From Spirochaetota bacterium (lineage in GTDB: Bacteria > Spirochaetota > UBA4802 > JAKQUI01): 64,000 bases of DNA. The notes below the pieces were generated by a model. It was not told the origin of the DNA. It ran no database searches and saw only the letters and a list, made by a program, of their open reading frames with translations. The DNA is taken from assembly GCA_029562645.1 (NCBI GenBank), contig JAKQUI010000033.1:59146-123145 (forward strand), in the 5' to 3' direction. The translations under genes and the position numbers were made by a program. Position 1 is the stretch's first letter. Each line of letters begins with the position of its first letter. Positions 767 through 17,719 of the stretch are shown here, piece by piece.

Positions 767-2155
767 CTAGAAGATGAAGTTGCAGCCGCCCTGGATAAAC
801 TGCCGGTTCTTCTCGCCCTCCACGTAGGCCTTGCCGGGAAAGAACATGGCGTAATTCACGAAGATCGAGAGATCGTAGAAGATGCGCCAGCGGAAGCTCG
901 CGTCGGCGCCGTGGCCGACCTCGGTCTCCTCAAGCGGCGCCTCGTTGTAGTTGATGACGCCCTTCGGCTTGTCCTTCATGTAATAGGAATATTTCGCCGT
1001 GACGTTCATGCGCCGCAGGAAGCGCGACTCGGACCAGGAAAACGGCGACAGAGAGAAACCGCCGCGCGCGATATGGAGATTGGACAGAAGCGGCCGGAGG
1101 GCGTAGCCGCCGAGAAATGTCCCGAAGTAGATGAAGCCGTTGTCCTCGCCCGCCTGATTGGCCGTGGGCGATGCGCAATCGTACCGGTCCTCGTCGCCCG
1201 AACCGTAGGCGTACTGGACCATGAATACCGGCTCGAGCGGCAGCGGCAGATACCAGTTGACCCCGGCCTGCGCCGCGGCCGCGTTCACGTTCCGCTTCTC
1301 GTTTTTCCCTTTCAGATAGCTTTCGCCGCTCTCATATACGAACTCGCCGAAGTATTCGACCGAGTCGGTGATCACGCCCTTGAGGCCGATCCCGTAATAC
1401 TGCGAATTATAGCGGCTCCGGATGAATTGCTGGCGCCCGTTGTCGAGCTGCGCCATCGCGAACAGATACAGGGTCTGGTTCCACAGCGTTCGCTGGACCA
1501 TGCTTCCCGCGAAATACCGCCGGGCGCCCACCGCGATGTCCTCGTCGCTGAGACCGTAGGGATTGAAGTCCTTCTGCAGCAGTCCCGTATACATGCCGAA
1601 CACGCGCACGTCCGCCACGCTGGTATTGAGGTCGACCTGGATGCCGTCGCCGCGCCCGTTGAGCGCAAGGCCGCTCCCAAGGATGAAGAACTTCCGGCCC
1701 GCGTACACCTGCAGCATGTTGTCGTCGGTGGACACGGCGAGATAGCCCACGTCGAGGTCGACCTTGTTTTCGTTTAGTTTAATTCCGTCTGAACCGCCGG
1801 CCTCGCGGATACCGATCCCATCATGCTTGAGGATATGATAGTACTGGTCCTTCCCGCGGACATAGACATAGCTCTTACCCCAGAGCGTGCTCTTGATCCA
1901 TAGCTTTGCGGTGTTCACCGACGTCGTGAGGACCTGATCATTCCGTCGCTCGTCGATGACCATGGGCATGAGCCAACCGCCGTAGCTTATCGAGAACGGC
2001 TCGCGCGTGAACCGCTGCGCGCGCATGTCCTCGTCCGACCGGAAATCGGGATAAAACGAATCGTCACGGTCGGCGTTCTCGGACCGTTGTGCGTACGCGC
2101 CGGACGCGAGCGCCATGCACACACACCATAGTATTGCCACTCTTCGGAGGTTCAT
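767..2155 (-). CDS. outer-membrane beta-barrel protein of unknown family
   Basis: 462 aa. N-terminal signal peptide MNLRRVAILWCVCMALASGAYAQ. Alternating amphipathic pattern throughout and a C-terminal ...CNFIF (terminal Phe). Confidence 0.5.
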   Translation of the reverse strand: MNLRRVAILWCVCMALASGAYAQRSENADRDDSFYPDFRSDEDMRAQRFTREPFSISYGGWLMPMVIDERRNDQVLTTSVNTAKLWIKSTLWGKSYVYVRGKDQYYHILKHDGIGIREAGGSDGIKLNENKVDLDVGYLAVSTDDNMLQVYAGRKFFILGSGLALNGRGDGIQVDLNTSVADVRVFGMYTGLLQKDFNPYGLSDEDIAVGARRYFAGSMVQRTLWNQTLYLFAMAQLDNGRQQFIRSRYNSQYYGIGLKGVITDSVEYFGEFVYESGESYLKGKNEKRNVNAAAAQAGVNWYLPLPLEPVFMVQYAYGSGDEDRYDCASPTANQAGEDNGFIYFGTFLGGYALRPLLSNLHIARGGFSLSPFSWSESRFLRRMNVTAKYSYYMKDKPKGVINYNEAPLEETEVGHGADASFRWRIFYDLSIFVNYAMFFPGKAYVEGEKNRQFIQGGCNFIF

Positions 2156-2200
2156 GTCCCTGCGTGCTCCTTGCTGCTGTTTGCGATACGTTCGTGCTCT

Positions 2201-2701
2201 CTATTTCGATTCGGCGCGGCGCGAGACCCGGTTCATCACCTCGATGAGCTCGGCGCCGCTCATGCGGTCCCACTCGCTCCCGGCGTAGTCCATGATGCCG
2301 TTGGCGACGCAGGCCCGAAAGGCATAGCGTTTCGTCTTGAAGATCGCGTACATCGCGAGATCACCGAGCTTCAGGTACTCGGCCGCCATGAGCGCCACGT
2401 CGCCCTTTCGCACCGGATCATTCTCGCCCATCCCCAGCTCCGCATCGATGCCGGCGGTTTTGAGCGCCGCCTTGTTCTCGTCGAAGGTCCCCGGCTCGCG
2501 TCCGATGACCATAACGAAAAAATTGAGGGCGTCGCCGCAGGTGACCCGGTCGCGCGAGGACACCTGCGCGATGAACTCGATTATACCGAGCCCCTGCTCG
2601 CCGGGGTTCCTGCTTTTATAAATCTTCACCGACGCGCCGTCCTGCGCCAGGACCGGCAGCGACAGCATGATGATGCACACGGCTGCGAACAATCGTTTCA
2701 T
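2201..2701 (-). CDS. secreted hypothetical protein
   Basis: 166 aa. Signal peptide MKRLFAAVCIIMLSLPVLAQ. No recognisable catalytic motif. Confidence 0.4.
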   Translation of the reverse strand: MKRLFAAVCIIMLSLPVLAQDGASVKIYKSRNPGEQGLGIIEFIAQVSSRDRVTCGDALNFFVMVIGREPGTFDENKAALKTAGIDAELGMGENDPVRKGDVALMAAEYLKLGDLAMYAIFKTKRYAFRACVANGIMDYAGSEWDRMSGAELIEVMNRVSRRAESK

Positions 2702-2711
2702 CGCGATTCCC

Positions 2712-3449
2712 TCAGTACGGCCAGATGATCCTGATTTTGAGTGTCGCCTTCTGCTTGTTCATGATGGTCGAAAAGCGATCGGGACGATCGCCGTTGTCCA
2801 GGTAATCGTCGAAATACTCGTGCAGCTGCTTCTCCTCGTCGGTGATGTCGTCGGCGTGCACGCGGACCAGCGCGCCGTCGCGCACATCGGAGAGGATATT
2901 GTCGGGAAGCGAGCGATCGGGCCGTTGTCGGTAGTTCTTCTTTCCGCGCAGACTGCGTTCGCTCCCGTTCCGGTTCTCGGCGTCCACCGTCCCCTCGGGG
3001 ACGCGGATGGTCATGCCGGACATGCCCCCGAAGAAGACCTCCTGTTCCGTACCGCGCACGCTGGAGGTCGCGACCGGCGTCTGGATCTTGAACACCGACT
3101 TGACGGTCTTGAGCTTCGGGACCTTCGCGTTCACGCCGCCGTACTTCAGGGCGATCTTCGTATCGGACGCGTCTTTGGAGACGGCATTGCGCGAGATCTT
3201 TATCATGGTGAGCGGGCGGACGGTGAGCGTCGCGCCGTCAATGGATATCTCGGCGGTCGACCGCGCCCCGGTGCTTACCTTGGTCCCCTCGCGGAGCGTC
3301 ATCCCCCGCGTGAGCGGGCGCCACTGCCGGTCCGCCTTGAAGGCGACCGTGCCGCTTACGGAGGCCACCTTGATATCGGCGTGCGCGGCGGCTACGAACG
3401 CAAGCGCCATGCACACGGCGATACACGATATAAACGATGATTTTCTCAT
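2712..3449 (-). CDS. FecR-domain secreted protein
   Basis: Internal start MRKSSFISCIAVCMALAFVAAAHA (signal peptide) chosen over the longer ORF to 3509. FecR-like core ...GTVAFKADRQWRPLTRGMTLREGTKVSTGARSTAEISIDGATL. Confidence 0.5.
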   Translation of the reverse strand: MRKSSFISCIAVCMALAFVAAAHADIKVASVSGTVAFKADRQWRPLTRGMTLREGTKVSTGARSTAEISIDGATLTVRPLTMIKISRNAVSKDASDTKIALKYGGVNAKVPKLKTVKSVFKIQTPVATSSVRGTEQEVFFGGMSGMTIRVPEGTVDAENRNGSERSLRGKKNYRQRPDRSLPDNILSDVRDGALVRVHADDITDEEKQLHEYFDDYLDNGDRPDRFSTIMNKQKATLKIRIIWPY

Positions 3450-3565
3450 GGCGTAAACCTCCCGGAAGCAGCCGCGCCTCCATTCAACGTATGTATGATG
3501 GCTGCACAATTCAATTCTTTACAATCAAAAAAATAAAATTTCCCCATTGGGCTTTACCAAAAAAG

Positions 3566-8098: not shown

Positions 8099-8815
8099 AT
8101 GAAACACCGTAAGTCGATGCTCATCGATAAAAGGTTCCAATTACGGACCGCGTTCACCATCATCGGGATCGTCATCCTCGCCTGCTCGATCATCATCGCC
8201 GCGATCGGCGTGATCGCCGCGATCAACAATCGCACCCTGCGGGACGTCGCGCGCAACCAGCAGGAAATCATCGCCACGCAAAGCGAAATGCTCAAGGCCC
8301 TCAACGTGTTCGCGCAGGAGAAGACCTGGCAGAACCTGCGGATCGCCACCGACAAGGTCTCCGGCGACCTGAACCGCAACGCCGGCAAGATCGAGGTGAA
8401 CAACGCCCTCATCAAAAACATCTCCGAGACCAACACCGTCCTCATTGCGGCCATCATCCTGTTCGTGATCGTGCAGGGGGTGGCGCTGTTCGTCATCATA
8501 CTCCGCAAGACGCACCGCATCTCCGGGCCGCTGTACCTGCTGTCGATGTACACGCAGAAGATCATCGACGGAGAGCATCCGCACATCAGGCCGCTGCGCG
8601 AAAACGACGAGTTCCAGGAATACTACGAGCTCTTCACCCGCATGGCGAAGGCGATCAAGGAACGCGATGAGGCGCACGGAAAGAAACATGCCGCGAAAAA
8701 ACGGACGCCGCGCAAGACGACCGCACGCGAGGAGCACGCCGGATCAGGCGAGGCGGAAGATGCGGGAACGCCGGCGCCAGAGGAACCGACGGATACGCCT
8801 AAAACAGATATCTAG
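8099..8815 (+). CDS. two-transmembrane protein with a HAMP-like linker
   Basis: 238 aa. TM1 AFTIIGIVILACSIIIAAIGVIAAI, a periplasmic loop, then TM2 VLIAAIILFVIVQGVALFVIIL followed by RKTHRISGPLYLLSMYTQKIIDG (R-x-I-x-x-P-L, HAMP-like). Lys/Glu-rich tail with no output domain. Confidence 0.45.
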   Translation: MKHRKSMLIDKRFQLRTAFTIIGIVILACSIIIAAIGVIAAINNRTLRDVARNQQEIIATQSEMLKALNVFAQEKTWQNLRIATDKVSGDLNRNAGKIEVNNALIKNISETNTVLIAAIILFVIVQGVALFVIILRKTHRISGPLYLLSMYTQKIIDGEHPHIRPLRENDEFQEYYELFTRMAKAIKERDEAHGKKHAAKKRTPRKTTAREEHAGSGEAEDAGTPAPEEPTDTPKTDI

Positions 8816-9896
8816 CGCCCAGCCCCAGGCCCAGGAACTGCCCGGCGTTCGACTTTTGCTGGAAAAAGAGGCCGCAGAAGGGGCTAATGAAAATCGCGAG
8901 ATTCTCGAGGGGGAGCACGCCGATCTCGCATCCGGCGACGAAGGCCGGATCGAAGAGATAGCGCATGCGGTATGAATACCGCCCGGCGGCGTCGGCCCCG
9001 TTGGGATCGCCGTCGATCAGGTGCAGCATGCAGCCGAAACCGGCATGCGGGATCACGAACAACGGTCCATAGGGCGTAAAGCGGTATCCCGCGCCAAGGA
9101 TTGCGGACGACAGGGCGTAGGACCGGATGCTCGCACGGTCGTCGTCCATCACGAAGTACCCGAGGGAAACCATCGCGAGCGCACGTCGTCCCGGCAGGAG
9201 GCGCGCGTTCAGGCCCACAACGGCCCCATACCCGCCGCCTGCCATGTCCGCCATGATCCCGACCGGCCGCAGGAGCGCCAGCGTCAATGAGACGCCGTCG
9301 AGCTCGATCCCGAAGGCGCGCTCGCGTGCTCGGTCGGCCAGCAGCTTGCGATACAACTCGACGATCTCGCGGGCGATCCGTTCGGTTTTCGCGCGCGCCT
9401 CGGCGAGGGTCGGGGCCGTTTCCGTTCGACTCAGGTCAGCCGCGCCGGTCTTCACATCGATCGCTTTCACCTCAACGACGAAGGACTCGCGATACTGGTC
9501 CCTGACGACATACTCGCTCACTTGCTCCTCGCCGGTCTTTTCCGTATAACGCGTGAGACGACCCACGACTATCTTCTCCGACGAAAGAAACGCCCCCTGC
9601 GCGGCGGCGCAGTCCTCCGCGTCACACGCGGCCCGCCCGAACCCGGCGGCCCGCTGGACCTCGTAGACGACCGCATCGTCGGGGACGGCGAAATCACGCT
9701 CCGCCCTGAGCGCGCGACGGACGATACTCGCAAGCTGCGCGGCGCTGCCGGCATCGACGTTGCGCGGAACGAAGTCGAGCGCGGCGATGGCGAGCCGCGC
9801 GCTTGCGGGCTTTTCCGCCGCCGAGAGCGCGCTTGTGCACGCGATAAGCGCGATACCCACGAGGGCCGATCGCAGGAACATGCGAAAAACGAGCAT
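8799..9896 (-). CDS. two-domain outer-membrane protein, paralog A (periplasmic alpha/beta domain plus C-terminal beta-barrel)
   Basis: Start set at MLVFRMFLRSALVGIALIACTSALSAAEKP (signal peptide). The longer ORF to 10034 would overlap the SBBP gene on the other strand. Ends ...GLGLGARYLF. Clear paralog of 11417..12499: ...GIELDGV..., a shared C-terminal barrel and the same terminal (Y/R)Y(L/Q)F. Confidence 0.5.
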   Translation of the reverse strand: MLVFRMFLRSALVGIALIACTSALSAAEKPASARLAIAALDFVPRNVDAGSAAQLASIVRRALRAERDFAVPDDAVVYEVQRAAGFGRAACDAEDCAAAQGAFLSSEKIVVGRLTRYTEKTGEEQVSEYVVRDQYRESFVVEVKAIDVKTGAADLSRTETAPTLAEARAKTERIAREIVELYRKLLADRARERAFGIELDGVSLTLALLRPVGIMADMAGGGYGAVVGLNARLLPGRRALAMVSLGYFVMDDDRASIRSYALSSAILGAGYRFTPYGPLFVIPHAGFGCMLHLIDGDPNGADAAGRYSYRMRYLFDPAFVAGCEIGVLPLENLAIFISPFCGLFFQQKSNAGQFLGLGLGARYLF

Positions 9897-10035
9897 ACCC
9901 CGGGATGATTTTGTCTTGACTTTATTGTTCGGAGCCATTATTGGGCAAAAATTACAAATCGCCGGAATCATTGCAATCCATTTCCTCCGGGCTTGCAATA
10001 AAAATACAGTGTGCGACCGCCATCGAGCGGGCACT

Positions 10036-11415
10036 ATGATTGGACAATTGAAAATAGGACGCCGATTTCTCTTTCGCTACGCGCTCGCACTTGCACTTGC
10101 ACTGTGCGCCATCGCCGCATGCAATAACACCCTCAACGAATACAAGGACGGATCATACTTCGTCGGGTCGCAGCGGATGATTACGTGGGCGAAGACATAC
10201 GGCGGGAGCTTCGAAGACGCCGCGATGGCCATCACCCAGACCTCCGATGGCGGATATGCCGTTGCCGGATACTCATTTTCGAACGATGGCGACGTGACCG
10301 GCAATCACGGCATGGCCGACTTCTGGGTGGTGAAGGTTGATTCCGACGGGAACCTCCAGTGGCAGCGCAATTACGGCGGCAGCGAGGATGATAGGGCTTA
10401 TGATATTAAACAAACCGCGGATGGCGGATTCATTCTCGTGGGCAACACCAAGTCAACTAACGGCGACATCACCGTGGAAAGCGCGCATCATGGTGGATAC
10501 GACATCTGGGTGCTCAAGATCGATGCGCTCGGCGATATTCAGTGGCAGCGGTGCTTCGGGGGCAGCCTCAATGATTATGGAACAAGCATACAGATTATCT
10601 CCTCCGGGTATGTCGTCGCAGGCTATGCGCTTTCCTCGAACGGCAACCTGACGGGAAACAACGGAAGCGCAGACGTGTGGGTGTTCACGATTGACAACAC
10701 CGGTACGCTCACCCGACAGGCGAATTTCGGCGGTCCGGCAACCGACAGCGCAACGTCGATCCAGCAAACCAGTGACGGAGGATACATTGTCGCCGCCCAC
10801 ACGCAATCGAACTCCGGAGACGTCTCCGGAAACAATGGCGCGATGGATGCGTGGATCATCAAACTCAACTCCTCGCTCTCAATCACCAATTCGACATGCC
10901 TCGGCGGAACCCTCGACGATCAGGCCAATGCCATCCGACAAACGGGAGACGGCGGGTATATCGTCGCCGGGTACGCCAACTCTGGAAACGGCGACGTGGT
11001 CGGGCAACACAATGCGGGCACGGCCGACCAGTGGGTCGTCAAGCTGAGCGGTTCGCTCGCTATCCAATGGCAGCGGTGCCTGGGGGGCTCGTCGAACGAT
11101 TTTGCCGAAGCGGTCCGGATCGCAAATGACGGCGGATATATCGTGGCAGGATACACGAGCTCCAGCGACGGCGACATAGCGGGCAAGCACGGGCAGGAAG
11201 ACGTGTGGATCGTCAAGCTTACCGCATCCGGCGCGATTCAGTGGGGCAAGTGTTTCGGCGGGGACGACAATGACCGCGCGAACAGCGTATATCCGGCATC
11301 CGACGGAGGATTCATCGTTGCCGGATATTCGAATTCGACAAACGGAGACGTCACCTTCAATCACGGGATCAGCGACTTCTTCCTCGTAAAAGTCAACGAC
11401 TGGGGCAACTGGTAG
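10036..11415 (+). CDS. seven-bladed SBBP-type beta-propeller lipoprotein
   Basis: Start at MIGQLKIGRRFLFRYALALALALCAIAACNN (lipobox). Seven tandem units of about 47 aa of the form (Y/F)GG...D.A..I.QTSDGGY(I/A)VAGY..S.DGD(V/I).G.HG..D.W(V/I)VKL...G..QWQ(R)C. Confidence 0.6.
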   Translation: MIGQLKIGRRFLFRYALALALALCAIAACNNTLNEYKDGSYFVGSQRMITWAKTYGGSFEDAAMAITQTSDGGYAVAGYSFSNDGDVTGNHGMADFWVVKVDSDGNLQWQRNYGGSEDDRAYDIKQTADGGFILVGNTKSTNGDITVESAHHGGYDIWVLKIDALGDIQWQRCFGGSLNDYGTSIQIISSGYVVAGYALSSNGNLTGNNGSADVWVFTIDNTGTLTRQANFGGPATDSATSIQQTSDGGYIVAAHTQSNSGDVSGNNGAMDAWIIKLNSSLSITNSTCLGGTLDDQANAIRQTGDGGYIVAGYANSGNGDVVGQHNAGTADQWVVKLSGSLAIQWQRCLGGSSNDFAEAVRIANDGGYIVAGYTSSSDGDIAGKHGQEDVWIVKLTASGAIQWGKCFGGDDNDRANSVYPASDGGFIVAGYSNSTNGDVTFNHGISDFFLVKVNDWGNW

Positions 11416-11416
11416 G

Positions 11417-12499
11417 CTAAAACTGGTAGCGCACGCCCAGCGATCCGGTCACATAGTGTCCGAAGGAGCTGCGCTCGAAGAACACGGTGTACGCCGGGAT
11501 GAACAGCACATTCAACCGCTCGCCGATCGCGACATCGAGCTCGCACCCGCCCGTGACCGTGGGATCGTAATAATAGTCCTTTTTATATTCGTACCGCCCC
11601 GACGCGTCCGGCCCGTCCTTGTCCCCGTCGATCACGTGCAACAGATACCCGACCCCGGCGAACGGCAGCACCCGCACGGACCTGCCGGGCTGGAAGGCGT
11701 ATCCCGCGTTGACTGAAATCGCCGCGAGCCAGGCCGATTGAATGCTCTCGCGATTGTCCTTGAGCGAGTAGTACGACAATGCGAGGATAGGAACGATGTT
11801 CCGGTACGGCACCACCCGTCCTGCGGCGTAGAGGGTCCCGCCGTATCCCTCGGTGATGTAATTCGCGAAATCCCCCAGCGGCTTCATGAAGCTGAACGTG
11901 AACGCGACGCCGTCGAGCTCGATGCCCTTGAACCGCTCGTCCCGCTCGATCGGTCGGCGGCGGTAGTATTCGATGATGTCCTTCGCGATGGCGCGCGTGC
12001 GCTCAATGAGCTGCGGCCTGCCGCCCGCGTCCTCCTGGAAGCGCAACTCCCCGGTCCCGGTGCCCGCGTCCACCACCTGCACCGTGATCACATACACGTC
12101 ACGAAAGAGCTCCTTGACCACATAGGGGCCGATCTGCTGCTCCCCGTACTTCTCGACCCGACGCCGTACCTCGCCGATGACGATCTTGTCGCTGGGCAGC
12201 GCCTTGCCGAGCGAAACGGCGCATGCGCTCTCGAAGCACTCCACGGAGGCGAGGCCGGCCTTCTGCGCGCCCGCCGCCACCTCCTCCCTGCTCGCGACGG
12301 CAATGAAGCCCGAGGCGCGCAGGTCCGCACGCAGCGTGTCGGCCACCTCGGCGACGACATTCGCGGGCGCATTGTCCGGCCGCGGATCGAGCACCATAAA
12401 TCTGAGCGGGGCGGACGCCTGCTCGTCACTCCCGAATGCGGACGCGGCACCGGCGAGCAATGCGAGCGCCATCATACAAAAATGAATTTTTTTGATCAT
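11417..12499 (-). CDS. two-domain outer-membrane protein, paralog B
   Basis: 360 aa. Signal peptide MIKKIHFCMMALALLAGAASAFG. Same architecture and clear similarity to 8799..9896. Ends ...SLGVRYQF. Its stop lies 1 nt from the stop of the SBBP gene (tail-to-tail). Confidence 0.55.
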   Translation of the reverse strand: MIKKIHFCMMALALLAGAASAFGSDEQASAPLRFMVLDPRPDNAPANVVAEVADTLRADLRASGFIAVASREEVAAGAQKAGLASVECFESACAVSLGKALPSDKIVIGEVRRRVEKYGEQQIGPYVVKELFRDVYVITVQVVDAGTGTGELRFQEDAGGRPQLIERTRAIAKDIIEYYRRRPIERDERFKGIELDGVAFTFSFMKPLGDFANYITEGYGGTLYAAGRVVPYRNIVPILALSYYSLKDNRESIQSAWLAAISVNAGYAFQPGRSVRVLPFAGVGYLLHVIDGDKDGPDASGRYEYKKDYYYDPTVTGGCELDVAIGERLNVLFIPAYTVFFERSSFGHYVTGSLGVRYQF

Positions 12500-12665: not shown

Positions 12666-12851
12666 ATGAAGCCCCTATACATAGATGTCGGAAAAGACGA
12701 GAATGATCGCTTCCCGCTCTGCCCGCACTGCGGGAGCGAGCTTCGGACAATCACCGACTATCGCAGCCACTTGAAGTTCATGTCGAACATGCATGTGTTC
12801 TGCTGCTCGAAATGCAATACGGCATTAGGCGTTACGGCCGTCTCGAAATAA
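12666..12851 (+). CDS. small zinc-ribbon protein
   Basis: 61 aa from MKPLYIDVGKDENDRFPLCPHCGSELRT...VFCCSKCNTALGV, giving CxxC...CxxC. A TTGACA-17-ATTAGT promoter-like motif lies at about 12598-12626. Confidence 0.4.
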   Translation: MKPLYIDVGKDENDRFPLCPHCGSELRTITDYRSHLKFMSNMHVFCCSKCNTALGVTAVSK

Positions 12852-12885: not shown

Positions 12886-15393
12886 ATGATGAAATCGATC
12901 ACGCGCTATATGAAATATTTTTCCGGAATTGGCATTGTGATACTGCTGATCGTTTCAACAGGCTGCGGGAATATGATGGACGGGTATAGTGAAGGGGATG
13001 GGCCGGGCTCCGGGGACGCGAGTGGCGCAAATCCCTCCTTCAATGCCGCACCGGAGGTCTCCTTTACCAATCTTCGCAACAGACAACTGGTAAACAGCCC
13101 CATCGTCATTACCGGAGCTTCAGACGACGACCTGAGCGTGGACACGGTGCAGCTTTTTATCGATGGCGTCCCCCATGACGCAACGACCACCACGATGTGG
13201 TCGACCTGGACCTTCGACCTGGCGGGCGTCGCGCTGTCTTCGGGCCGGCACGAGTTTCGTGCCGTTGCAACGGACGCGAGCGGCGCCGAAGGATCCACGA
13301 CCGTTATCGTATACTTCCAGGACGGCCCCGACATGCTCCCCGTCGATGTCGATGCCGCTTCACTCGTATATGACTCGCAAACTCTTGCAGTAAACGGGAC
13401 GGTTTCCGTGACCGTTCGCAATCCCAGCGCCTACGCGGTGGAAGAACCCTATCGCGTGACTCTCTTCGCCGACGCGAACGGCAACGGGACCTACGAATCC
13501 GGAACCGACAGCATTCTCGGCGGCACGACCGTGGCGGACGGGCCCGCCGCGAACAGCGAATCGACGATTTCCATACCCGTAAACGCGACTGCCCTCTTCC
13601 GCGACAATCCCGTGTATGCGTTTGTCGATTCCGACGAAGCTATCATGGAGACCGATGAAATCAACAACGTGTATAACAGCATGGCGAGCTGCACTTATAC
13701 GGCACCACCAGGGACGTTTAATCCGGTGGTGAAGTGGCAGTGGACGGGGAGTACGGTGAATCCAAGTTCAAACCAAGTCATGTGTTCTCCCGTGGTAGCG
13801 AACCTCAACGATGACAATGGAGACGGGAAAATCGACAGCAATGACATTCCTGACATTATCTTCAATACTTTTTACAGTTACTACTACCACGACAGCGGAA
13901 CTCTCCGTGCAATCAGCGGTGACGGCACAATGGAATTATTCTCCGTCACCGGATATCCAACTTCACCAGGAGGGAATCCTGCCGTTGGAGACATCGACAA
14001 TGACGGCTTTCCGGACATTCTTGCAATTGGCCAAGAATCGGAAGGGAGCAAATTATTGTGTTTTAATCATGATGGAACTCTCAAATGGATATCTACAGAA
14101 GGAACGGGGAGTTATCTCTCCTGCCCTGCAATCGCAGACATCGATCACGATGGCGTTCCAGAGATCATTGTCGGCTCAAAGGTTTACAATAACAACGGGA
14201 CACTTCGCTGGCAAGGAACTCTTGGGACTGGGAGGAACAATTCTACCGTTGCCGACATAGACATGGACGGAGACATGGAAATCATTGCCGGGAATACTGT
14301 TTATCGTTCGAATGGTGATGTTTACTGGCAAAATGATCTTGTGTATGACGGCTATACGGCGATCGGAAACTTTGATGACGATTTCCTCCCTGAAATTGTT
14401 GTCGTAATGCAAGGCAATGTGTGGCTTCTGGAACATGATGGCGCAATCAAGTGGGGCCCGATAAATCTGCCGCATGGAGCCACACCAGCGCGTGGTGGAC
14501 CGCCCACCATAGCTGACATTGATGGCGATCAAGAGCCAGAAATCGGCATCGCCTGCGCCGAGTTCTTTGTTGTTCTTGAAACTGATGGAACAATTAAATG
14601 GCAGCAGCCAATTGACGATACGACCTCTTCAATCACTGGCTCATCAGTATTCGATTTCGAAGGCGACGGTAAAGCTGAGCTCGTATATGCTGATCAATAC
14701 AAACTCCGTATTTTTAACGGCCAAACTGGCGCGATCATTTTCGAGCACACTGCGGGTTCGGGAACGCTTCTCGAAATACCGATTGTTGTCGACGTCGACA
14801 ACGACAACAAGGCCGAAATTGTTGTTGTCGCGAATAATTACTGGAATTCATCGGTCAATCAAGGAGTTTACGTCTTCGGCGATGCGAACAACACCTGGGT
14901 AAACACCCGCAAGATCTGGAACCAGCACTCGTATCACGTAACCAACGTGAACGACGATGCCACCATCCCGCGCGTAGAACAGAACAACTGGATTACGTAC
15001 AACAACTACCGCCAGAACCAGCTTGAGCGACCATCCGGATGCTTTGACGTGTCCGCGTCGTACGTCCGCGTCACGCCTGATGCAAATCCAGGCGATTATA
15101 CCATCACCGCCCGCATCGGCAACAGCGGCGCGCTCGCAATTGGAAACACTATCGATGTAGCACTCTTCGACGGCAACCCGGAGACCGGCGGAACGCTGCT
15201 TGGCGTGAGTCAGATAACCAACCGCATGGAGGTTGGCGCATGCGTGGACGTCACATTCACGTGGAGCGGACCGGCGGCCGGGACACATTCGATCTATATC
15301 GTCGCTGACAGTAATGGGACAGGATTGAGTCGGTTGCGGGAGATGAATGAGGGGAATAATACGGGGACAACGTCAATAAATATTACTCCCTAG
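12886..15393 (+). CDS. FG-GAP/VCBS repeat lipoprotein with a C-terminal CARDB-like domain
   Basis: 835 aa. Lipobox LLIVSTGCG. Repeated D-x-D/N-x-D-G Ca-binding loops (DIDNDGFPDILAIG, ADIDHDGVPEIIVGS, ADIDMDGDMEIIAGN, DFEGDGKAELVYAD, VDVDNDNKAEIVVVA). The central part of the gene is markedly lower in GC than its 5' end. Confidence 0.6.
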   Translation: MMKSITRYMKYFSGIGIVILLIVSTGCGNMMDGYSEGDGPGSGDASGANPSFNAAPEVSFTNLRNRQLVNSPIVITGASDDDLSVDTVQLFIDGVPHDATTTTMWSTWTFDLAGVALSSGRHEFRAVATDASGAEGSTTVIVYFQDGPDMLPVDVDAASLVYDSQTLAVNGTVSVTVRNPSAYAVEEPYRVTLFADANGNGTYESGTDSILGGTTVADGPAANSESTISIPVNATALFRDNPVYAFVDSDEAIMETDEINNVYNSMASCTYTAPPGTFNPVVKWQWTGSTVNPSSNQVMCSPVVANLNDDNGDGKIDSNDIPDIIFNTFYSYYYHDSGTLRAISGDGTMELFSVTGYPTSPGGNPAVGDIDNDGFPDILAIGQESEGSKLLCFNHDGTLKWISTEGTGSYLSCPAIADIDHDGVPEIIVGSKVYNNNGTLRWQGTLGTGRNNSTVADIDMDGDMEIIAGNTVYRSNGDVYWQNDLVYDGYTAIGNFDDDFLPEIVVVMQGNVWLLEHDGAIKWGPINLPHGATPARGGPPTIADIDGDQEPEIGIACAEFFVVLETDGTIKWQQPIDDTTSSITGSSVFDFEGDGKAELVYADQYKLRIFNGQTGAIIFEHTAGSGTLLEIPIVVDVDNDNKAEIVVVANNYWNSSVNQGVYVFGDANNTWVNTRKIWNQHSYHVTNVNDDATIPRVEQNNWITYNNYRQNQLERPSGCFDVSASYVRVTPDANPGDYTITARIGNSGALAIGNTIDVALFDGNPETGGTLLGVSQITNRMEVGACVDVTFTWSGPAAGTHSIYIVADSNGTGLSRLREMNEGNNTGTTSINITP

Positions 15394-15443: not shown

Positions 15444-16322
15444 TCACGAAAGAAGGTATTCATCCACCAGCTGATCAGCGCCGTTTTGCGAGAAATCAAA
15501 ATCACGATACTCCCGCATTCGGCGCTGCCCCGTCTCGAATGTACGTACCGCGGGAACAAATATCGCTTCTTTGTTAAAGTAAATCATTTCCCAGAAAAAA
15601 TTATACCCGGCCCCGCACACAACGAGATCGAAAGCATTGTAGTAATCCGCAATTGGGAACAAGCCGTTCTCGTAATTCGATGAAAATTTTAACACATAGC
15701 CCTGCTCTTGCAAATACGAATATTCTTTTACCACTTGATGATACTCGCCAGGTTCCCCATTGTAGGCGATTAAACAATTCTGTTCGTTATGCGACAAGCC
15801 GATGCGTGCACAAGCCTGCTCTCTCGAAAGCAATTCATCCCGATTGCGTACAATGATTGGGCTAATGGCCTTCATTCGCACTTTTGAGTCAAACGGTTCA
15901 ATTCTCAAGACAAAATCGAAGGCGTCAGGATTAAAATCTAACAAACCACCATTCAGTTCCATTTGGAAAAATCGATCGTTCACCTGACGACAGAGAAATA
16001 TTTTTTTACATGCGAGATCACCAATGAAGTGGTACAACGGAAACCAGAGGAGATCAACAATGAGGACATCCGGACGCAAGCGCGACAACTCATTAAACAA
16101 ATGGGAAGACTTATAATTTCTGTCTGAGAGTGCCTCCTCGTCCTCTAATGGTATTTCTCTATGTGCAAATTTTAATTCGTCGCAAAGAAACGCGAAATCG
16201 GAACTACTCAAGATGGCATACTCTGCATCAAGCCCCTTACGACGAAGGGCATTGCCGATTGCAATGCCCCTTACGATTCTACCGGAACCAGTTATTCCTG
16301 AGGTATAATAAATTATCCGCAA
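15444..16322 (-). CDS. glycosyltransferase-like protein (GT-B / MurG-like N-terminal nucleotide-sugar motif)
   Basis: 292 aa. N-terminal MRIIYYTSGITGSGRIVRGIAIGNAL resembles the G-rich loop of GT28/MurG-type transferases. The gene is about 40-45% GC, far below the window average. Confidence 0.4.
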   Translation of the reverse strand: MRIIYYTSGITGSGRIVRGIAIGNALRRKGLDAEYAILSSSDFAFLCDELKFAHREIPLEDEEALSDRNYKSSHLFNELSRLRPDVLIVDLLWFPLYHFIGDLACKKIFLCRQVNDRFFQMELNGGLLDFNPDAFDFVLRIEPFDSKVRMKAISPIIVRNRDELLSREQACARIGLSHNEQNCLIAYNGEPGEYHQVVKEYSYLQEQGYVLKFSSNYENGLFPIADYYNAFDLVVCGAGYNFFWEMIYFNKEAIFVPAVRTFETGQRRMREYRDFDFSQNGADQLVDEYLLS

Positions 16323-16325
16323 GGA

Positions 16326-17597
16326 TCAACACTCGTAGAATTTAAAGTACCCGACACCCACACCTTTCGAGCCATATGATTGCCAATTTTCACCATCAAT
16401 ATCATCAAAGGCAAGTAACTGATCATACCCAGGATCACTTTCATCAATCACAAAAATCTTTCTATTTGTTTTTGCAACAATACGTTCCGGACCATAAAAT
16501 TTGCCAGGCCCAGATGGAGAACCCCCCGGTAAAACTGAACCATACCCCCGTACAAACCTTAGATTCTTATCAAGCTCAATAAATCTATAGCCATTCGCTC
16601 CAGCATTATTTGAAACAAACACCTTGTCATCCTTAACACAAATATCCCTAGCCCCGTTGATTTGAAAAGTATACGACCCAATCAGCGTCCCACTTCCACT
16701 TGGATTAAATTTATGAATCTTCTGCGTAGTTGCTATATATAAAATTCCATCGGTGTCAACCGCAAGGCCACGGATAAACTCCACGCCGTTGAGTGTAAAG
16801 GACTGGAGATTACCCCCAGCCGTATCTCTTCTATATACAGTACTAGGATCGTTAGCATTTTGAGTATAATAAACAAGGTTACTTTTTCGGTCAATCGCGA
16901 TCGAAGGATTCGTAAGCCCAGCAGTAACAATCGTATCGCACGTGGTACTATAAATATTATCAATCCTCACCATAAGTGGGGTCGTTGAATTAGAAATTAT
17001 ATAAATCCTCCCTTGGGCATCAAAGTCAATATCATATGGCTGCATTGCTCCCCCATAACCGATCTGCGAACCATTTCGATCAATCCAATTCTTCCCAGCC
17101 ATGTTTTCTATTTGAACGATACGATAATTTCTAAAATCCGGAATCACCAACTTCGTTTCATATGTCACCATCTGCATGGCGACTTCTTTCGTCTCCCCCG
17201 GCTCGAGATCCGCGGTGAGCGTCCCGCGATAGGAGAGCACCGCGCTCGGATCGCCGTCCTTCACGTAGCCGATCACCTGTATAAAACGCGACTTGCCCGC
17301 GGGGACAGTCACGGTGATATAGGTGGGCGGCGGCGAGTAGGAATTCTCGAAGGTCTTGATGTCCTCGGCGCTCACCACGATGGACACGCTCGCGATGTTC
17401 GACGGCGCCGCATACGCCTTCGGCATGATGAAATTCATGAACCGGTCGAACCGGGTCTTTGGAGCATTGAAGGCCTGGTCGAGGCCGAGGTTGATCACCA
17501 CGGTGGAATCGCCAAGCTCTCCGTCGGATTTGATGCAGCGAACGGATAGCATGCACAATGACGCCGCCAGAACGGTAATTGTGATTTTCTTTATCAT
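16326..17597 (-). CDS. secreted NHL-repeat (six-bladed beta-propeller) protein
   Basis: Start at MIKKITITVLAASLCMLSVRC (signal peptide). Repeated units such as ...LVYYTQNANDPSTVYRRD..., ...GILYIATTQKIHKFNPSG... and ...DKVFVSNNAGANGYRFIELD... fit NHL blades. The distal two-thirds is AT-rich and the 5' third is GC-rich. Confidence 0.5.
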   Translation of the reverse strand: MIKKITITVLAASLCMLSVRCIKSDGELGDSTVVINLGLDQAFNAPKTRFDRFMNFIMPKAYAAPSNIASVSIVVSAEDIKTFENSYSPPPTYITVTVPAGKSRFIQVIGYVKDGDPSAVLSYRGTLTADLEPGETKEVAMQMVTYETKLVIPDFRNYRIVQIENMAGKNWIDRNGSQIGYGGAMQPYDIDFDAQGRIYIISNSTTPLMVRIDNIYSTTCDTIVTAGLTNPSIAIDRKSNLVYYTQNANDPSTVYRRDTAGGNLQSFTLNGVEFIRGLAVDTDGILYIATTQKIHKFNPSGSGTLIGSYTFQINGARDICVKDDKVFVSNNAGANGYRFIELDKNLRFVRGYGSVLPGGSPSGPGKFYGPERIVAKTNRKIFVIDESDPGYDQLLAFDDIDGENWQSYGSKGVGVGYFKFYEC

Positions 17598-17719
17598 ACA
17601 GAAACTCCTCACGCACATACTCTTCCGCAAAAAACACACTGGGAGCGAGTTGGACGGTCTCTTTATATTCGGTACGTTTATAAAAGTACGATTTTCCGCG
17701 GAAATGTCAACAAAAATAT

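Follow-up and report, generated by a model that had tools for sequence, protein, structure and literature searches.

We identified two diverged copies of an uncharacterized outer-membrane protein (OMP) family in a 64,000-nucleotide stretch of DNA from a Spirochaetota bacterium (the window). In these proteins a small, eight-stranded barrel of the OmpA/NspA type replaces the lipid anchor found in proteins with the TolB-N/LpoB/PelC/CsgG fold. The family occupies a conserved neighborhood together with a two-transmembrane (TM) HAMP-like protein and with lipoproteins that are mostly β-propellers of FG-GAP or CylK-like type, and this set looks like a real, uncharacterized cell-envelope module.

An outer-membrane protein with its own barrel anchor

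Paralog A (8799–9896, minus strand; 365 aa) and paralog B (11417–12499, minus strand; 360 aa) lie where a prior sequence-only reading of the window had placed two related genes, and their products share 37% identity over 339 aa (E = 3e-66). The open reading frame of A spans 8799–10034 and offers ATG candidates at 9896 and 9881, the second of which is chosen in public gene calls and yields 360 aa. Both proteins have a hydrophobic, signal-like N terminus, two domains, and a C terminus ending in YLF (A) or YQF (B), a layout proposed earlier and borne out by sequence and by the structure model of B. The N terminus of B contains no lipobox; that of A contains a lipobox-like LIAC, the cysteine of which is not conserved across the family alignment. 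The paralogs belong to no named family, as had been suspected: neither scores above cut-off against Pfam or NCBIfam, and their homologs are labeled "hypothetical" or "CsgG/HfaB family." The CsgG/HfaB model (PF03783) matches neither window paralog, and OMP_b-brl (PF13505) gives 18.4 bits for B, below the Pfam gathering cut-off of 28.7, and no match for A. A PDB sequence search with the OMP returned nothing significant, and a literature search found no description of this architecture.

The structure model of B (pLDDT 92) comprises an α/β domain, predicted to be periplasmic (aa ~30–181; nt 11957–12412, minus strand), followed by an eight-stranded barrel (aa 192–359; nt 11423–11926, minus strand). 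The α/β domain has the fold common to the TolB_N/LpoB/PelC group, with better fold matches to TolB and LpoB than to PelC, and bears a long, highly charged β-hairpin insertion (aa 105–144; RRRVEKYGEQQ...KELFRD). A C-x4-C pair, invariant among the nearest homologs and retained in the consensus of the wider family, is consistent with a periplasmic disulfide. The predicted barrel consists of eight antiparallel membrane strands with both ends in the periplasm, and its fold matches NspA, OmpA, and OmpX.

Each half of the protein thus has known relatives in fold. The periplasmic α/β fold is shared with the TolB N-domain, LpoB, PelC, CsgG, GNA1162, HpaA, and FlgT, most of which are outer-membrane lipoproteins (TolB is soluble); in contrast, the OMP is anchored by its C-terminal barrel rather than an N-terminal lipid and carries the charged hairpin. 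It also lacks the genomic context of that group: we saw no csg context, and tol-pal, PBP1b-partner, and pel gene contexts were absent from the window and from the 20 OMP family loci that we compared. The charged hairpin and the absence of a lipobox led us to reject a CsgG-type channel; the amphipathic transmembrane hairpins of CsgG have no counterpart in B, which is predicted to enter the membrane through a separate, monomeric barrel. Eight-stranded outer-membrane barrels also occur in NspA, the OmpA transmembrane domain, the OprF N-domain, OmpX/Ail, OmpW, and PagL. Unlike in OmpA and OprF, the periplasmic domain of the OMP comes first and the barrel last, and because this domain is not the peptidoglycan-binding OmpA_C, OmpA-like peptidoglycan tethering was ruled out. 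Fold does not fix the function of the OMP, since the same N-domain fold does very different jobs in TolB, LpoB, PelC, and CsgG.

The barrel bears directly on the earlier proposal of a duplicated outer-membrane "anchor or usher," of which the diverged duplicate and the anchor are supported and the usher is not. Eight-stranded barrels such as NspA, OmpA, and OmpX are not known to have an open lumen, and the NspA/OmpA class serves as a membrane anchor, not a conduit; a barrel of eight strands matching this class therefore makes an usher unlikely and led us to reject an usher or Slam-like pore. It is accordingly very improbable that the OMP is a dedicated export device translocating neighboring lipoproteins across the outer membrane, as Slam/DUF560 (type 11 secretion) does. 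The likeness is nevertheless real: Slam, too, combines a periplasmic domain with a barrel and is often encoded beside lipoproteins (PMC5449769), about 52% of its homologs adjoin a lipobox gene, and several such neighbors are demonstrated Slam-dependent substrates (PMC5449769), while the two-domain OMP adjoins lipoproteins that share a signal-like N-terminal motif (see below) and is linked to propeller lipoproteins in 16 of 20 loci. However, Slam is a proteobacterial protein with a TPR domain and a DUF560 barrel of 14 predicted strands (PMC5449769); the OMP, with Spirochaetota as its named sources, a TolB-N-like domain, and eight strands matching NspA, OmpA, and OmpX, shows no homology to it and no TPR or DUF560 match, and a folded propeller of 450–800 aa cannot traverse such a barrel.

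The extent of the family was revealed solely by exhaustive HMMER search, which yielded 1,555 matches at E ≤ 1e-3, with 191 cluster representatives passing E ≤ 1e-10 and 27 passing E ≤ 1e-30; most are full-length proteins of 330–370 aa. Word-indexed protein searches with B alone or with a 40-sequence profile recovered almost no OMP homologs, and a search for the barrel motif [YF][YF][DN]P..P.Y..[FY]FE....G as degenerate DNA found just two short contigs in a metagenome collection. All members seen derive from uncultured genomes, and every one with a named source organism comes from a metagenome genome of Spirochaetota/Leptospirales type. Among 40 members, Pfam matches included CsgG (10/40) and OMP_b-brl (9/40; E < 0.01) as well as TolB_N, LpoB, and DUF2380; the PF03783-matching relatives belong mainly to a subfamily without the hairpin.

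Genes around the two paralogs

Between the paralogs, on the opposite strand, lies a lipoprotein gene (10036–11415, plus strand; 459 aa) that begins with a signal peptide and lipobox (...LALCAIAAC), continues with a short tether (C-N-N-T-L-N-E-Y...), and encodes seven blades over aa 49–459. The sequence-only reading had recognized this lipoprotein and its seven repeats, to which we add a match to the C-terminal propeller of CylK in three stretches (E = 2e-19). Judged by its seven tandem repeats and this homology, the lipoprotein has a seven-bladed CylK-like propeller; it differs from CylK in being a lipoprotein and in lacking the CylK N-terminal domain, and nothing suggests enzymatic activity. 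The blades, previously described as near-perfect units of 47 aa, in fact measure 57–61 aa each and are 38–53% identical in pairwise comparison (mean 45%). This divergence, and the lack of a DNA-level tandem repeat in the gene, led us to reject a recent amplification of the propeller. Its designation as SBBP-type drew weak support, with no Pfam SBBP (PF06739) match at E ≤ 1 and scores far below cut-off for the NCBIfam Leptospira SBBP lipoprotein model NF047494 (LipL53-type; 25 bits against 400) and the NCBIfam delta-60 repeat model (32 bits against 76.5). Homologs of this propeller were found in three other loci only: L005, where it sits beside the closest OMP homolog, L079, and L091. A single base (11416) separates its stop from the stop codon of B at 11417, as reported earlier. 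At its other end, 139–154 bp (9897–10035) lie between its start and that of A; the two genes do diverge from this region, as had been said, but the promoter postulated there gave no match in a sigma-70 consensus scan.

A further gene, overlooked in the sequence-only reading, converges on paralog A, with which its 3′ end overlaps by 17 nt. It encodes a 238-aa two-TM HAMP-like inner-membrane protein (8099–8815, plus strand), for which an AlphaFold2 model (pLDDT 80.7) predicts two TM helices around a helical periplasmic segment, followed by a helix-connector-helix in which one helix runs from TM2 to aa 156 and the second spans aa 173–201. The sequence T-H-R-I-S-G-P is invariant in this helix-connector-helix. 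The layout recalls NarQ-type sensor-TM-HAMP proteins, and the five best PDB fold matches were all to the NarQ sensor-TM-HAMP fragment, at weak E-values of 0.013–0.27; unlike NarQ, however, the protein has no kinase or other output domain and no Pfam HAMP (PF00672) match, although one distant homolog carries PF00672. PDB sequence searches with profiles of the TM protein returned nothing significant. The TM-HAMP family exceeds the module, its commonest paralog residing in an unrelated context beside a Maf-like gene.

On the other side of the paralogs, the small zinc-ribbon gene and the FG-GAP lipoprotein gene described earlier are both present. The former (12666–12851, plus strand; 61 aa, CxxC...CxxC, weak Lar-like match) has no homolog in any other locus; given this lack of conservation we dropped it as a member of the unit, and it probably lies outside the conserved module. 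The latter (12886–15393, plus strand; 835 aa), divergent from B, combines Big_7, an FG-GAP propeller, and CARDB (Pfam), an architecture that also follows the OMP and TM-HAMP genes in L034 and L097. Each OMP copy is thus beside a different propeller lipoprotein (10036–11415 and 12886–15393), and the duplication of the anchor gene in this genome would have occurred long ago.

A conserved gene neighborhood

The linkage to β-propeller lipoprotein genes, the lack of which would have counted against the sequence-only reading, is conserved: propeller-lipoprotein homologs occur in 16 of 20 OMP family loci compared with 1 of 72 control loci (Fisher p = 2.5e-13). In this comparison the propeller queries themselves stem from OMP loci, phylogenetic relationships connect the loci, and each control is the neighborhood of a TM-HAMP paralog. 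The sole control match sits on a contig that breaks off at the TM gene itself, and no propeller homolog was seen in 4 of the 20 OMP loci. The OMP-propeller-OMP triplet of the window, in contrast, was seen again solely in near-identical contigs from the window's own organism, and all other loci carry one OMP copy. The TM-HAMP gene adjoins the OMP in 14/20 family loci, with homologs beside the OMP in L004, L007, L015, L016, L100, and eight genome loci. Among the 12 loci reached via the OMP itself, a propeller lipoprotein lies within 2.5 kb in nine and a TM-HAMP gene is present in six, while loci reached via TM-HAMP show an operon in which the OMP gene overlaps stop to start with the TM-HAMP gene and an FG-GAP lipoprotein gene follows.

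FG-GAP propellers are the usual partners, and the partner repeat families overall include FG-GAP_2, FG-GAP_3 with CARDB, PKD with FG-GAP_3, LVIVD, and CylK-like repeats, in differing orientations. Since partners come from different repeat families and orientations, the arrangement is not one inherited synteny block, and the use of different propeller families points to repeated recruitment. This bears on the view that there is no functional link and that envelope genes are merely co-located in a lineage-specific, lipoprotein-rich region. The window, L007, L009, and L100 do share wider synteny, so adjacency is partly inherited, and gene order and orientation vary. Yet the strong enrichment over control loci of the same phylum, the operon-like spacing (the OMP/TM-HAMP overlap and gaps of 4–38 nt to lipoprotein genes in L011, L014, and L016), and the recruitment of different propeller families make such an accident of location very unlikely.

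Other genes in the neighborhood raise the possibility of a role in polymer or glycan export. A trio on the minus strand (767–3509) encodes a large Alginate_exp-type barrel (767–2155; Pfam), a 166-aa protein (2201–2701), and a FecR-domain protein (2712–3509; Pfam); each gene is found in seven to eight OMP loci (eight different loci altogether), and the 72 control loci contain none of the three. A GT28-like glycosyltransferase (15444–16322, minus strand; Pfam) accompanies the OMP in seven loci, and homologs of it are paired with homologs of the adjacent 437-aa lipoprotein (16326–17639, minus strand; marginal, full-sequence-only Pfam SBBP score) in L007, L009, L015, L074, L097, and L100. In an export accessory, PelC-like domains would ring under the outer membrane, held by their barrels, and feed polysaccharide to the Alginate_exp-type porin, with the lipoproteins binding or modifying the glycan; domains typical of proteins that bind or process carbohydrate in the partner lipoproteins (CARDB, PA14, CHB_HEX_C, LamG, F5/8-C, FGE-sulfatase, and a faint RGL11_C) fit this picture. 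The PelB-PelC exporter (PMC12141448) offers a close parallel, with a PelC-like domain in the OMP and a large Alginate_exp-type barrel co-occurring in seven OMP loci, but no other pel genes are present and the OMP anchor is a barrel, not a lipid. Moreover, 12 of the 20 OMP loci lack the Alginate_exp trio, the N-domain is closer to TolB and LpoB than to PelC, and no locus showed a synthase, polymerase, flippase, or c-di-GMP receptor. We therefore regard glycan export as distinctly unlikely.

A primary role as a trans-envelope sensor comparable to Rcs or FecA-FecR, in which the lipoprotein or OMP senses a cue, the HAMP-like protein relays it to a cytoplasmic partner, and anchoring is secondary, appears comparably improbable. 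In its favor, no other partner is as well conserved in sequence as the HAMP-like protein (E = 1e-26 to 1e-83 across loci), the best fold match to the model of this protein is the NarQ fragment, and several loci have regulators close by: L004 a SpoIIE phosphatase, L016 an RsbW-like HATPase_c_2 protein, and L009, L014, and L101 ECF sigma factors, with FecR-domain proteins in addition. Nonetheless, the NarQ E-values are weak, the HAMP-like protein lacks an output domain, none of the regulators is a consistent neighbor, and the HAMP-like gene is absent from six of the 12 loci reached via the OMP.

A lipoprotein motif and a candidate docking adaptor

Starting at the lipidated cysteine, the partner lipoproteins have a short motif in common, C-S-N/D-M-M/I-D-x-Y, which we found near OMP genes only. 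Each of the 18 open reading frames in which C-[SG]-[NDQK]-[MI]-[MILP] follows a signal peptide is located no more than 4 kb from an OMP gene, and the motif is present in 18 of 67 candidate lipoproteins of OMP loci but in 0 of 76 from other loci (p = 3e-7); the motif was first defined from partner proteins, and its absence from control loci is the independent part of this test. It occurs on unrelated passenger domains, including propellers, LamG, PA14, and FGE-sulfatase. In the window, the FG-GAP lipoprotein carries C-G-N-M-M-D-G-Y, the middle propeller has a degenerate version (C-N-N-T-L-N-E-Y), and the homolog of the latter in L005 lacks the motif.

Our preferred reading, held tentatively and at somewhat less than even chances, is that the OMP, anchored by its barrel, acts in the periplasm as a docking adaptor for lipoproteins and is linked to the HAMP-like protein. 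The barrel would fix the α/β domain beneath the outer membrane, where this domain would dock the conserved tether at the N terminus of the co-encoded lipoproteins, thereby holding or positioning them at the outer membrane. Docking would probably proceed through the conserved charged hairpin, with its tip ...G-E-K-x-I-S-K-Y..., and the periplasmic segment of the HAMP-like protein may contact the OMP-lipoprotein complex and couple it to the cytoplasm.

A bolder form of this docking model, which we consider rather unlikely, would make the OMP the receptor of a lineage-specific lipoprotein address tag, C-S-N/D-M-M/I-D-x-Y, irrespective of passenger domain: the hairpin-bearing TolB-N-like domain would capture tagged lipoproteins, and the adaptor would sort, retain, or present them at the outer membrane together with its HAMP-like partner. 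To our knowledge, how spirochetes sort, retain, and display their numerous lipoproteins is poorly understood, and we know of few outer-membrane factors dedicated to particular lipoproteins beyond Slam and LptDE-type routes. An address-tag receptor, if real, would constitute a new lipoprotein sorting or anchoring system in Leptospirales-type spirochetes, resembling Slam or the Bacteroidetes lipoprotein export signal in logic, not ancestry. The unnamed family, from Spirochaetota wherever a source is named, unusually combines a TolB/LpoB/PelC-type domain with its own small barrel anchor and is repeatedly encoded beside propeller lipoproteins and a sensor-like inner-membrane protein; together with a short, specific N-terminal motif, this provides a testable hypothesis of adaptor-plus-tag recognition.

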